DNA of 64,000 bases from positions 41,759-105,758 of the forward strand of contig JARVGK010000009.1 of assembly GCA_029762535.1 (NCBI GenBank), written 5' to 3'. Under the pieces are notes generated by a model. It was not told where the DNA came from and searched no databases. It saw only the letters and a list, made by a program, of their open reading frames with translations. The stretch is from Thermoplasmatota archaeon. Lineage in GTDB: Archaea; Thermoplasmatota; Penumbrarchaeia; Penumbrarchaeales; Penumbrarchaeaceae. A program made the translations under genes and the position numbers. Each line of letters begins with the position of its first letter. Positions within the stretch are counted from its first letter, which is position 1. Positions 29,105-33,859 of the stretch are shown in pieces.

Positions 29105-29202
29105 GATAACTACCCGGGATGTAGAAGGCATATTCTTATAAAAGGATTTTATAAAAAACCCTCATGAGCCAAGGCTCACAACATAGCATGAAGATATCTG
29201 TC

Positions 29203-29376
29203 GGGTTTTTTCGTAAGTCCCTCTCGTCGCTAACACCTCGTTACGGGACTTCGAAACCCAGCACAACCATATCGTCGCTTACTCATTACCGTTGTGCGGG
29301 GGTATGAAGAAAAAACCGCTTCCAAACGTCCTATCTTCATACCAATAAGAGGGGGCGCCTATCATCGGGCGCCCCC
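29203..29376 (-). ncRNA. Array of four consecutive hairpins (candidate ncRNA or structured 3' UTR)
   Basis: Stems AAGTCCC/GGGACTT (extended by GGGTTT/AAACCC), GCACAAC/GTTGTGC, GGTATGAAGA/TCTTCATACC, GGGGGCGCC/GGCGCCCCC; G-U extension of hairpin 3 favours the minus strand. Confidence 0.55.
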
Positions 29377-29388
29377 GGGGATACGGGC

Positions 29389-29490
29389 TCAGCAGTGGGG
29401 GAATCTGTATGGATACATGTTGTTGAGCCGGTACCAGACACCCCATTCTTCCTCGAAGAGGTCGGGTTTCCACGGTTGGACAGCTTCCAT
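29389..29490 (-). CDS. 33-aa peptide MEAVQPWKPDLFEEEWGVWYRLNNMYPYRFPHC
   Basis: Perfect AAGGAGGTGA RBS 5 nt before ATG; strong hairpin right after the stop. Confidence 0.7.
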   Translation of the reverse strand: MEAVQPWKPDLFEEEWGVWYRLNNMYPYRFPHC

Positions 29491-29511
29491 CTTCTTCACC
29501 TCCTTATCCTT

Positions 29512-29643
29512 CAAGAGATCCCGGGGATCCTCGGAGGCGTCGCTAGGTATATATATTACGTATTCCCATACCATACCTGAGGATCCAGGACCTTTCCCCG
29601 GGGCCGTTACCATTCCGCGGGGGAAGGTCTCCTCGAACTCTCT
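29512..29643 (-). ncRNA. Structured 5' leader, copy 1 (candidate cis-regulatory RNA)
   Basis: TCGAGGAGACC-stem-GGAATGGTAACGGCCC-stem-CCTGGATC shared with the 30407 gene leader; lies between TATA and RBS. Confidence 0.6.
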
Positions 29644-29665
29644 ACTTCTTACATGACCTTACCTA

Positions 29666-29724
29666 CTTATAAGCTATACCCATCAAGTTATAGGTTTTTA
29701 GAGGGTTATATATAATTTTTCCAT
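29666..29724 (-). promoter_or_regulatory. Shared upstream block, copy 1
   Basis: GGAAAA-ATTATATATA-ACCCTCTA-AAAACC-TATAACTTGA...CTTATAAG. Confidence 0.65.
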
Positions 29725-29866
29725 CCTACAAAGGGGAAATACCTTTTGCCAGCAAAGTGTAGCGGATCCCTGACCGACGATGATATAGCTTCCTTTCTGT
29801 CGGCATGGTCAACGGATCCCCGAAGCGCATAATCCAAAGATGATGAGATCATCCCATAGGATCAAC

Positions 29867-29903
29867 AAAAATAAAAAAAAATGGGCCGGAGATATTCCGG
29901 CCC
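29867..29903 (-). terminator. Hairpin + T-tract terminator of the ATP-cone gene
   Basis: GGGCCGGA/TCCGGCCC stem followed on the minus strand by a long T run. Confidence 0.75.
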
Positions 29904-29924
29904 GGGGTTTTTAGGGGGGCTATC

Positions 29925-31247: not shown

Positions 31248-31316
31248 TATCCCATTCCCTTGGCCGCGATCATCGATCTAAATTGAACGAGCTGGAAATG
31301 GAGCAAAGCATGCTCC

Positions 31317-31373
31317 TTTATGAAGCTGATCCGATAAATTATACTCTAATAGAGGGTCTTATAAGGTTTTCCC
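31317..31373 (-). promoter_or_regulatory. Shared upstream block, copy 3
   Basis: GGAAAA-CCTTATAAG-ACCCTCTA-TTAGAG-TATAATTTA...CTTCATAAA. Confidence 0.6.
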
Positions 31374-31384
31374 TCCCGCGCATC

Positions 31385-31993
31385 TCAAGGAGGACAGATC
31401 TGAGGGGTCTGTCCGGATCCCTGGAGCCGTAAGCACTCCTTATTGTACGCATCTCTCCAGTTAGGAGGGCAGCTATTGAAATGTAACTCCAGGTGGAGAT
31501 CGTCAGGGTCCTTGGTTTCATTTGAGGACATGGATGTTATCACGAACCTGTCATCCTTGCATAACGGTTGCAGGGCCCTCCCGGACTTTTGACCCCGAAC
31601 GGTAATGCAGCAGTCCGTATACACCATATTGGATGGTTGCATCCATTCATATATTTGTGCGTATGTCAGCTCGTAGTTAGGGTCTCCGTTCTTGAAAGTG
31701 AATTTTCCATCGGTCATTTGAGAATGATCGTCTATCACGATCCACATATTATCCGTGGGACCCACAAGGAATCCATGCGGTTGCATCTGGCTGTGATCGA
31801 AGCACTTGTCCCTGAGGGTAACAAAGTCACAGTCCCCATCGTAATACTGACCCAGGAACGGATCGCTTTGAATAGAGATGGGCCCGTATATCTTTATCGG
31901 GTCGTAACAATTGTCCTTGAGCGCACCGCTGACACTCTTTTTAAGATCGGAAATATCCTTCCCATATGCCCATATGAATGCCGCTTTTCCCAT
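31385..31993 (-). CDS. Hypothetical protein, putative inactive caspase/legumain-fold paralog 1
   Basis: WIVIDDHS, LTYAQIYEW, ITVRGQKSG, RFVITS..NE, QTPQI; GAGGTGA RBS. Confidence 0.65.
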   Translation of the reverse strand: MGKAAFIWAYGKDISDLKKSVSGALKDNCYDPIKIYGPISIQSDPFLGQYYDGDCDFVTLRDKCFDHSQMQPHGFLVGPTDNMWIVIDDHSQMTDGKFTFKNGDPNYELTYAQIYEWMQPSNMVYTDCCITVRGQKSGRALQPLCKDDRFVITSMSSNETKDPDDLHLELHFNSCPPNWRDAYNKECLRLQGSGQTPQICPP

Positions 31994-31997
31994 GATA

Positions 31998-32246
31998 TCA
32001 CCTCAACAACCTCGCTACGTTATAATACACGTCCGACCTCTCGAGCACATGCTTGCCCGGAGCCGTCAACGCGTCCTCTATCCTCTTGATCCTCGCCTTC
32101 ATCTCGAAGAACTCCGATAGAACGAGGACCATCATTTCTTTGTCCATGTATCCTTCTTTGACCTTGCCCAACATCTCCTCGGCCATTTTCGGATCTATCT
32201 CCGGGACCATGTTCTCTTTTCCCTTCCCACTTTCGACTTCATCCAT
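31998..32246 (-). CDS. Small hypothetical protein (short coiled coil)
   Basis: GAGGTG RBS before ATG 32246; stop overlaps the RBS of the next gene. Confidence 0.7.
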   Translation of the reverse strand: MDEVESGKGKENMVPEIDPKMAEEMLGKVKEGYMDKEMMVLVLSEFFEMKARIKRIEDALTAPGKHVLERSDVYYNVARLLR

Positions 32247-32291
32247 TTCAAGCACCTCACACTTCCTGCGAAGGTCGAAAAAAAAGAATGG

Positions 32292-32350
32292 GATATACCT
32301 TTATCGGCTTAAATTATAACTTTTTTAATAGGTTATATAATATTTTCCAC
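32292..32350 (-). promoter_or_regulatory. Shared upstream block, copy 4 (overlaps 3' end of the TPR regulator)
   Basis: GGAAAA-TATTATATA-ACCTATTA-AAAAAGT-TATAATTTAA...GTATAT. Confidence 0.65.
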
Positions 32351-33697
32351 TCCCTCGAAGCCCTTCTCCCTCGCTCTCTTTATGATCTCCTCGCGGAAGA
32401 TCACCAGCTCCTTCTCGGTAGGGAGGGGAAAGGCCACCTCCTTGCATTTGGCAAAATGTTCCAGAGCCTTATCGAGATCTCTCATCTCTATGTAGAGAAG
32501 GGCGTAGTTGAGTTCAACGATGGCCAGGCCCTCGTAATCGTTGTACGAGCTGAATATTTCATGGGCCCTCTTGAGGTATCCCTTGGAAAGGTCGAACTTG
32601 CCCTTCTTCATGGCAATATCGGCGAGGTTCGGCATTACCTTGGCCTCGGCGAATTCGCTCCTGGCCTCCCTTGCGTACTTTCTCGCCTTTAACCAGTCGC
32701 TCTCTGCCTCATCGTCTCTCTCGAGGATGAAGAACGTGACACCTCTCACGTTATAGGCCATGGCAAGGAAGAGGGACAACCCGTGTATGCTGAACGAGCT
32801 GATCGCTGAACGTAATAGCTCGGAATACTCCTCTCGGTCTCCCATGAAGAAAAGGATGACCCCCTTGTTCATCTTTACCAAAGATAAGCATATCCTGTTC
32901 TCGACCGTCATGAGCATGTCGTTGAGAATCGAGAGGGCCTCCTCGTCCCTGTTCTGTTTTCGAAGGAGATGCACCTGGTCTATCTTGATTATGAACCATT
33001 GATTGTAGTTAAGGTCCGTCCTGTCCGTTAGAAGGTGGTTAAGGATCATGGAGCAGTCCTCGAACTTCCCCATCCTCATCTTCGCCTCGGCCAGTATGAT
33101 AAGGGCATCTATGTCCTCCTTCCTCCAGATGTCCGATGTGACTATATCCTTGTCTATCTCGCCGTACAGAGATGCGTTGAAGAACGTCTCGACGAATGAC
33201 TCATGTCTGGTCCCGCACGGGTTCGCATCGATGTTCGAGAATATGTTCAGAAGCGTCGTGTCCTCTCTCGACACCTTCATCGTGTTGAGGAACATGGGCA
33301 GGTCGAAATATTTGTTCTGGGTGTAGAGCGCCAGGAAGAATATCCTCTCCATGATGTCGTTGATCTTCCTAAGGATCGTCCTGACCTCTATGCACGAGGG
33401 GATGCTGTGCCTCTCCTCGGTCAGGACCATGGAATCGATCATGGAATCGATCTGCGTGACCCTTCTCATCCCCTCCCGGGTCAGATCCGTGGTGCCCCTG
33501 ATATCGGGGGCGAATTTCTTCTTGGTCCTGGTTATGAGCCCATCGGACCTCAACCGGGTCATGTACAAATTCAGCGTACTATCCGAGATCCCCAAAGCGT
33601 TCGCGAGCTGGTCCTTCCTGTAGTTCTGGTCCGGCTTGCCATCCTTCGATATCAGATATATCGAGAATAGCACCAGGTCCTCTTTGCCCAGCTTCAT
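32333..33697 (-). CDS. Winged-HTH + TPR transcriptional regulator
   Basis: KDQLANALGISDSTLNLYMTRLRSDGLI..LTREG wHTH; C-terminal TPR-like repeats (AYNVRG, NLAD..MKKGKFD.S..YL.RA). Confidence 0.85.
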   Translation of the reverse strand: MKLGKEDLVLFSIYLISKDGKPDQNYRKDQLANALGISDSTLNLYMTRLRSDGLITRTKKKFAPDIRGTTDLTREGMRRVTQIDSMIDSMVLTEERHSIPSCIEVRTILRKINDIMERIFFLALYTQNKYFDLPMFLNTMKVSREDTTLLNIFSNIDANPCGTRHESFVETFFNASLYGEIDKDIVTSDIWRKEDIDALIILAEAKMRMGKFEDCSMILNHLLTDRTDLNYNQWFIIKIDQVHLLRKQNRDEEALSILNDMLMTVENRICLSLVKMNKGVILFFMGDREEYSELLRSAISSFSIHGLSLFLAMAYNVRGVTFFILERDDEAESDWLKARKYAREARSEFAEAKVMPNLADIAMKKGKFDLSKGYLKRAHEIFSSYNDYEGLAIVELNYALLYIEMRDLDKALEHFAKCKEVAFPLPTEKELVIFREEIIKRAREKGFEGVENII

Positions 33698-33859
33698 GGG
33701 AACTTCCCCCCATACTCAATGGTCAAATTCATACATATCAATAGATGAATTTATACCTTTTCAATTTACATTATTAACACGTTATGACAATATTTATAAG
33801 TCAAAACCGGAAATTATATAAAAAAATGATCGATGATCCACTTTATCTATGAAATATTT

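Follow-up and report, generated by a model that had tools for sequence, protein, structure and literature searches.

A recurring cassette of a winged-helix–TPR regulator, dead legumain-like proteins and a micropeptide of about 30 residues in an uncultured family of Thermoplasmatota

RRNPP regulators are recognized by an N-terminal helix-turn-helix (HTH) domain of the XRE type, absent in Rap, together with a C-terminal tetratricopeptide repeat (TPR) domain that binds peptides. To our knowledge, detailed understanding of TPR regulators that sense peptides comes only from Bacillota and the phages of Bacillota, few archaeal transcription regulators have known ligands, and what dead clan-CD proteases do in prokaryotes is for the most part an unanswered question; the pseudo-orthocaspases of cyanobacteria offer a precedent for such dead enzymes. 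Published RRNPP systems come from Bacillota and the phages that infect them (PMC7425212; bioRxiv 10.1101/2023.09.19.558401). Here we report on a locus in a 64,000-nt stretch of DNA, hereafter the window, from a Thermoplasmatota archaeon (contig JARVGK010000009.1, labeled C102 here, of a 2.96-Mb genome, G000, with 53% GC and 102 contigs). It encodes a regulator with a winged HTH and a TPR array (T), two legumain-like proteins (C1 or p202, and C2 or p197), a small open reading frame (ORF; p85), an ATP-cone protein and a 33-aa micropeptide (µP). An initial annotation of this DNA had placed four co-oriented units downstream of the regulator gene, and this arrangement holds, the units being p85 with p202, p197, the ATP-cone gene and the 33-aa ORF. 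The reading that we favor, and to which we give roughly even weight, is that the locus represents a regulatory cassette specific to its lineage, an uncultured Thermoplasmatota family of sediment archaea in which further copies exist, and that it forms an intracellular circuit of T, C, µP, a promoter block and a leader RNA.

The locus was compared with 23 other genomes of the family and with 37 genomes outside it; the relatives are metagenome-assembled genomes carrying the labels Thermoplasmatota, Thermoplasmata or Thermoplasmatales. At about 30 fetched loci T is followed by C on the same strand, usually with a spacing of 10-90 nt. Five of the eight T genes in the source genome lie directly before a C gene (on contigs C102, C14, C26, C7 and C8), one more stands in a tandem T-T-C arrangement on C8, and the remaining two are at contig ends, where a cut C fragment follows on C50 and 207 nt are left on C27. 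Two relatives, G004 and G010, share the order thermosome, T1, C1, µPa, T2, C2, µPb, M29 peptidase, with flanks as in the window. Other arrangements include T-C-µP in G012, µP-T-C-µP in G006, C-µP at a contig end in G017, and µP divergent from T in G002, G008, G020 and G022. In six genera (g1, g2, g3, g5, g6 and g7) µP, block and leader go with the orthogroup of the window's T, the exceptions for the hairpin being g6 and one g2 copy. The conserved core of the cassette is T, one or two C genes, and µP with its own promoter block and leader.

Co-occurrence in related genomes had been named as a check in the initial annotation, and regulator, pseudo-protease and peptide do co-occur. Its module of four units stands for T, C and µP, which are conserved, and falls for the ATP-cone gene and p85, which are at the locus only in this genome. 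Its suggestion of a new system also needs qualifying: the cassette is real, and the T-then-C pair is a multi-copy theme of the family, not a one-off. We found no published description of such a cassette in the literature, and PADLOC and NCBIfam assigned no family to any cassette protein.

In g1, g2, g3 and g5, motif searches followed by profile searches recovered µP genes that have a strong ribosome-binding site; weaker but convincing copies came from g3 (G002), g6 and g7, all of which adjoin an orthologous T. In total, µP is present in 13 of the 23 other family genomes, and most copies lie within 3 kb of an orthologous T or C. No clear µP was seen in the 37 genomes outside the family, where three matches (E 0.01-0.07) lay inside long ORFs or spanned 10-14 positions. 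The window's µP has the ribosome-binding site GGAGGTGA, 7 nt ahead of its ATG, and the C-terminal motif WYRLNNMYPYRFPHC; the family ends in W[YF]RLxNMYPxRWPRC. Eight columns of the µP alignment (A4) are invariant (M1, R21, N24, Y26, P27, R29, P31 and C33), and the N-terminal half is variable. The Arg ahead of Leu is written with the codons CGG, CGC, CGT and AGG across four genera, and this synonymous change points to selection on the protein. The 33-aa peptide of the initial annotation is accordingly a real conserved gene, as seen from the motif and profile searches and the invariant columns. Two lone third units, L062 (G004:C22) and L064 (G010:C15), consist of block, leader and µP, and their neighbors are ORFs that by eye look SIS-like and inositol-monophosphatase-like; the peptide unit is therefore able to exist alone.

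A related block ahead of each of the four units, noted previously at about 55 bp and measuring about 60 bp here, was recovered by two kinds of search. A repeat search returned a four-copy, 42-nt family, one copy ahead of each unit and 62-71% identical, and a 19-nt core allowed up to three mismatches occurs three times in the window against 0.02 expected (eight times in the genome, these three included). An nhmmer profile of 19 blocks, four from the window and 15 from orthologous loci of other genera, matches, across the genome, the four sites of the window and no others (Table 1; next best E 0.16). A further site resembling the block, on contig C5 ahead of a small AbrB-like gene, was not counted (E 0.16).

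Each block runs from an A-rich B recognition element (BRE) through TATA1, a CCC-rich stretch, an A-run, a central TATA(G/A)G, TT(T)CA and a BRE-like stretch to TATA2, and the spacer between the two TATA elements is conserved (CCCTnTAAAAAA-TATAGG-like). Upstream regions of 39 tRNA genes gave a generic promoter of roughly AAA(G/C)(G/C)TTTATA for this genome; because TATA1 and TATA2 both match this consensus, we read the block as a tandem promoter, its two elements about 42 bp apart and separated by a conserved spacer. TATA2 lies 35-40 nt upstream of the leader hairpin in every genus, a distance that would place the transcription start about 10 nt ahead of the hairpin. The first TATA of Block 1 overlaps the final codons and stop codon of T, and in orthologues the C-terminus of T (IENxI) coincides with the TATA in the same way. 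More distant T-to-C junctions likewise have a TATA, a C-run, about 30 nt and a second TATA.

The same structured leader had also been reported ahead of two of the units, and its identity is confirmed by sequence and covariance models. The leader is about 75 nt long and its two copies (repeat cores 29582-29624 and 30493-30535) are 77% identical and the only two in the genome. A covariance model from five copies found ten strong family copies at 52-88 bits, and a second model found 15 copies in five genera; copies from g2, g3c and g7 were weaker under the first. Every copy precedes µP save the one ahead of the window's ATP-cone gene, and homologous hairpins lie upstream of µP genes in g2, g3, g5 and g7. 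Rfam cmscan, run over 28500-34500 with E up to 10, returned nothing on either leader. Single-sequence folds agree on a basal stem (C)GAGG(A)/(U)CCUC(G), a conserved 3' bulge UUGGA (variants CUGGA, UUUGA, UUAGA and UUGAAA), a long inner stem whose sequence varies by genus with the pairing kept, and a variable tip; the 5' arm is pyrimidine-rich and CCUCC-like, the 3' arm GGAGG-like. In the model-guided alignment 70.8% of cells are paired, versus 39-56% with slid partners, nine of 13 pairs are changed on both sides, and the covariation score of 0.273 was reached by 7 of 500 shuffles.

Other treatments of the leader were set aside. RNAalifold on a MAFFT alignment gave only five pairs, with misaligned inner stems, and the basal-stem model was used instead. 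A K-turn reading of the UUGGA bulge was rejected, since the GA facing it on the other strand reads GG in three genera and the bulge itself has 5 nt, and a GGUC/GAUC outer pairing (model R1) was rejected as impossible in g2, g3 and g7.

T matches Pfam TPR_12 at 8.7e-15 and, weakly, HTH_Crp_2 (1e-4) and HTH_24, which upholds the earlier description of a winged-HTH–TPR regulator. A winged helix (residues ~1-90), a helical linker (94-190) and a TPR array (193-444) follow one another, and the AlphaFold2 (AF2) model, at a predicted local distance difference test (pLDDT) score of 84, has this winged helix, the linker and about six TPR pairs. Foldseek ranked PH0952 (6mfv) first, then LGN/Pins, BtubC and phage/Bacillus Rap, with template modeling (TM) scores of about 0.4-0.5 throughout, and a PDB profile search also found NprR arrays and MarR-type HTH domains; these are generic TPR likenesses. 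The HTH matches winged-helix models (Crp, HTH_24, MarR), not the XRE type. T has no NTPase match in Pfam and no Walker A motif, and only about 100 helical residues separate its winged HTH from its TPR array. T is neither an RRNPP member nor a STAND protein, the latter because it has no NTPase.

Full-length T paralogues number about eight in the source genome, and all 23 other family genomes have matches, from 1 to 11 each; beyond the family, the search gives only partial, TPR-only matches. A complex prediction for T residues 95-454 with µP lent no support to a complex (score 0.02, in a run without controls) and weighs in neither direction on whether the two bind. In other Thermoplasmatota families, a C homologue lies beside one ~900-aa TPR protein (G040, L118, C21:3146-6629) or between two (G039, L119, C4:344-6745). 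The G040 protein carries a MarR/Crp-type HTH, AAA_16/NACHT and TPR by Pfam; the two of G039 are known through their TPR profile and size.

The kinship of the two C proteins is visible at the profile level only, since pairwise BLAST of p202 against p197 was not significant and an iterated hidden Markov model (HMM) seeded with p202 collects 42 ORFs, p197 among them at 3e-35. A single-sequence search with p202 found only two matches, and Pfam nothing in p85, p202, p197 or µP. The family alignment has a beta1 motif, an (S/D)DH motif and a G-x-x-S-G motif, and its PDB profile search hit metacaspase and legumain (E 0.008-0.03). With xxSG aligned on ACESG of legumain, the Cys position reads Q in p202, P in p197 and E/N/D/V/S elsewhere, and none of the 28 aligned members has a nucleophile Cys (Q, P, E, N, D, V and others instead). 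p202 keeps the His (DDH) and has Gln in place of Cys (RGQKSG); in p197 both are substituted (LDS; RGPGSD). For the AF2 model of p202 (pLDDT 81, predicted TM score 0.82), Foldseek returned legumain, GPI8, caspase-11 and peptide asparaginyl ligases at E 4e-6 to 5e-5 and TM 0.5-0.63. An exhaustive HMMER search with the family gave 1677 representatives at E up to 1e-3, many of them multi-domain proteins of 1000-3400 aa in which the matching region is Pfam Peptidase_C13; the stand-alone C members have no Pfam match. A caspase-hemoglobinase fold is thus indicated by AF2, Foldseek and the PDB profile search, and the catalytic His-Cys dyad is missing. C is a dead offshoot of the prokaryotic legumains, and the label of pseudo-caspase given earlier to these ~200-aa proteins is apt: HMM, PDB profile and Foldseek searches all agree with a caspase/legumain fold that has no nucleophile.

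A hydrophobic anchor at the N-terminus marks 20 canonical C proteins (Kyte-Doolittle mean over 17 residues 2.4-3.1), whose genes are often trailed by genes for more exported proteins. C proteins of the window subtype, including p202 and p197, have no membrane anchor (Kyte-Doolittle maximum <1.8). Three canonical T-C pairs of the source genome (C8:23157-24401, C7:70068-72229 and C14:2686-3294) have a secreted C followed by same-strand, N-terminally anchored proteins, and T may head operons for surface or exported proteins.

Two genes of the locus lie outside the conserved core. For p85 (an 82/85-aa ORF), no homologue was detected; the g5 orthologues of C1 (G004 and G010) have an N-terminal extension of about 90-130 aa where p85 sits, with a coiled coil predicted by eye, and p85 does not align with the G004 extension. 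The 160-aa ATP-cone protein gives weak Pfam matches to ATP-cone and a CDC48_N/Molydop_binding barrel. Its earlier naming holds at the family level, where nine of ten members match ATP-cone (PF03477; best 1.1e-9, the window copy reaching 18 bits against a 25.8-bit cut-off) and the double-psi beta-barrel is found at 4.9e-5. Homologues occur in 11 of the 23 other family genomes at 25-36% identity. Nine of their loci were fetched; none has T, C or a block nearby, and the family search with the leader model matched none of them. At this locus the gene is a recruit, specific to this one genome.

In the intracellular circuit that we favor, T dimers would bind the block spacer and choose which of the two promoters fires, so that the genes bearing a block would form one small regulon. 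Input would reach T through its TPR array from a partner protein or peptide, C and/or µP being the likeliest. The leader hairpin could add control of translation if it competed with the ribosome-binding site, which lies some 65-135 nt beyond it; such interplay would be a reasonable mechanism. We also entertain, as a rather unlikely elaboration, a three-part intracellular switch: the dead legumain cleft would be a receptor for the Asn-containing tail of µP, C-µP would set the activity of T on the double promoter, the leader RNA would gate µP synthesis, and the cassettes elsewhere in Thermoplasmatota that have a secreted C and a STAND regulator would be an extracellular version of the same device.

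Several observations weigh against the favored circuit. The block was not found in T's own upstream region, and the blocks precede paralogous genes (C1/C2, µPa/µPb), so that their likeness may stem in part from duplication. The leader does not fold with better energy than shuffled sequences (z -0.8 and -0.3), the covariation gives only moderate support for its structure, and the hairpin is missing ahead of µP in the g6 copy and in one g2 copy (G012), where µP comes straight after C. The third µP copies of G004 and G010 are far from any T or C.

Some of these points are what would be expected of ordinary neighbors with duplicated promoters, an explanation that we consider unlikely, in which C1/C2 and the µP units arose by segmental duplication, the ATP-cone gene captured an upstream copy from µP, and T has some other target or acts on C alone. 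Indeed, C1/C2 and µPa/µPb/µPc are paralogues, the ATP-cone copy has the block together with the leader, as expected if a single continuous segment was captured, and T's own promoter has no block. Yet the architecture of the block (TATA1, the CCC-rich spacer with its TATA-like center, TTTTCA, TATA2 and the fixed distance to the leader) is kept over six genera in which the flanks have diverged, and the T-to-C junctions of distant paralogues also show TATA, C-run and second TATA. Hardly probable, in our judgment, is that µP acts in cis as an arrest or attenuation peptide, its conserved C-terminal 14 residues sitting in the ribosome tunnel and controlling a downstream hairpin and gene, like TnaC or SecM-type leaders. 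Conservation limited to the last ~14 residues, beside the stop codon, the enrichment of W, P and R, a stable hairpin after the stop codon, and a µP gene directly upstream of a T gene in G004, G010 and G006 would all suit such a role; it sits poorly with the M29 peptidase gene after µPb having its own promoter in G000 and G004, with the divergent µP genes of G002, G008, G020 and G022, and with the solitary third copies.

Cell-to-cell signaling of the RRNPP kind would make µP a pro-peptide that is exported and trimmed (the near-invariant Asn hinting at cleavage of the legumain type), then taken up again to dock in the TPR groove of T. An HTH-TPR protein does stand beside a small peptide conserved at its C-terminus, the TPR array of T resembles those of Rap and NprR, among other TPR proteins, canonical C paralogues at other loci are membrane-anchored or extracellular, and legumain relatives cut after Asn, µP Asn24 being invariant in A4. 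µP, however, has no hydrophobic stretch and no signal peptide, the C proteins linked to it have no transmembrane segment, every C is without a Cys nucleophile, there is no Opp or exporter gene at the locus, and Ser replaces the Asn in one G006 copy. The HTH of T is also a winged helix and not XRE, and the described RRNPP systems are those of Bacillota and their phages. Signaling of this kind is improbable, and the RRNPP analogy drawn in the initial annotation fails on HTH type, export signal and taxon, C and µP both looking cytoplasmic. The intracellular circuit, at roughly even weight, is favored over quorum sensing because C and µP are without export signals here.

All cassette genes, and the thermosome and M29 genes that flank them, are on the minus strand (Table 1).

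Table 1. Features of the locus, in window coordinates
Feature	Position	Strand	Basis or remark
Thermosome gene	33929-35590	-	Upstream flank
T, winged-HTH–TPR one-component regulator, 454 aa	32333-33697	-	Pfam, AF2, Foldseek
Block 1, double BRE/TATA promoter block	32294-32353	-	nhmmer E 8.6e-4; repeat copy 32306-32347
p85, 85-aa ORF (82 aa if ATG at 32246)	31998-32255	-	Ends 4 nt ahead of p202 start codon
C1 (p202), cytoplasmic dead legumain/caspase-fold protein	31385-31993	-	AF2, Foldseek, PDB profile search
Block 2, double BRE/TATA promoter block	31315-31375	-	nhmmer E 8.4e-6; repeat copy 31330-31371
C2 (p197), C1 paralogue	30654-31247	-	Collected by the p202-seeded HMM, E 3e-35
Block 3, double BRE/TATA promoter block	30575-30640	-	nhmmer E 1.3e-6; repeat copy 30592-30633
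Leader hairpin copy 1, 5' untranslated region (UTR) of ATP-cone gene	30481-30557	-	Covariance models R1 70 bits, R2 59 bits
ATP-cone + double-psi beta-barrel protein, 160 aa counted from ATG	29925-30407	-	Pfam family-level matches
Block 4, double BRE/TATA promoter block	29665-29723	-	nhmmer E 5e-5; repeat copy 29679-29720
Leader hairpin copy 2, 5' UTR of micropeptide gene	29570-29645	-	Covariance models R1 76.7 bits, R2 60 bits
µP, 33-aa micropeptide gene	29389-29490	-	Motif and profile searches
M29 aminopeptidase gene	27989-29131	-	Downstream flank

A GC-rich hairpin with a run of nine T (29870-29905, minus strand) comes right after the ATP-cone stop codon and is the sole clear terminator-like signal between the four units, with none after T, p202 or p197. 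Between µP and the M29 promoter lies an array of about 180 nt of nested or adjacent hairpins (29165-29345, minus strand; minimum free energy -62.6 kcal/mol, z -3.4 against mononucleotide shuffles). The motif GUAAYGAG...UAGCGACGA, which the µP leader has as well, occurs in two of its loops, and the array is not at the orthologous spot in G004; it could be a small RNA, a 3' UTR or a protein-titrating element. Elsewhere in the window, a Fic/DOC-domain protein with a C-terminal HTH_17 (27071-27982, plus strand; Pfam 5.7e-17 and 4.4e-5) is convergent with the M29 aminopeptidase gene. Stretches of low GC at 18001-24000 (28-35%), 46001-50000 (44-47%) and 62001-64000 (29%), against a background of 52-57%, may be islands of foreign or mobile DNA.

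Within single genomes the cassette recurs in many paralogous versions, and sister lineages have a counterpart of the STAND type. Its parts are concrete and open to testing: there is a regulator, there are two candidates for its protein or peptide ligand, and there are a promoter block with a defined layout and an RNA leader. If the links between them hold, they would make up a new family of archaeal gene-control circuits and provide the first candidate ligands for T-type regulators. The three-part switch, if true, would be the first peptide-based regulatory circuit in archaea, with no described counterpart.

Like the RRNPP systems (Rap-Phr, NprR-NprX, PlcR-PapR, Rgg-SHP, AimR-AimP), the cassette joins a DNA-binding domain and a TPR array in one protein beside a small peptide gene conserved at its C-terminal end. 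It differs from them in the winged-helix, Crp/MarR-like HTH of T, in a µP without export signal, in the dead legumain as an obligatory third gene and in its archaeal host; of the traits that mark RRNPP membership, T has the TPR domain without an XRE-type HTH, and no exported pro-peptide was found. T shares winged HTH and TPR with the PH0952-type STAND regulators (Pyrococcus horikoshii, PDB 6MFV, its top Foldseek match); at 454 aa it has neither the central P-loop NTPase nor the Walker A motif of PH0952/MalT-like STAND proteins. C has the fold of Peptidase C13 and clan CD (legumain, GPI8, peptide asparaginyl ligases), with the xSG after the nucleophile position and, in many members, the His motif. 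Unlike Peptidase C13, it is without the nucleophile Cys (0/28), has stand-alone forms without a Pfam match and is always paired with a regulator gene. The leader resembles translational-control hairpins and riboswitch-like leaders of 5' UTRs in being a conserved hairpin at the predicted transcript start, with anti-Shine-Dalgarno-like (CCUCC) and Shine-Dalgarno-like (GGAGG) arms and a strong ribosome-binding site downstream; it differs in having no Rfam family match, no evident ligand pocket and a variable apical part. Compared with the G039 and G040 loci, where C accompanies ~900-aa TPR proteins, the C of the window subtype is cytoplasmic, and the µP motif, the leader RNA and the double block are specific to this family.

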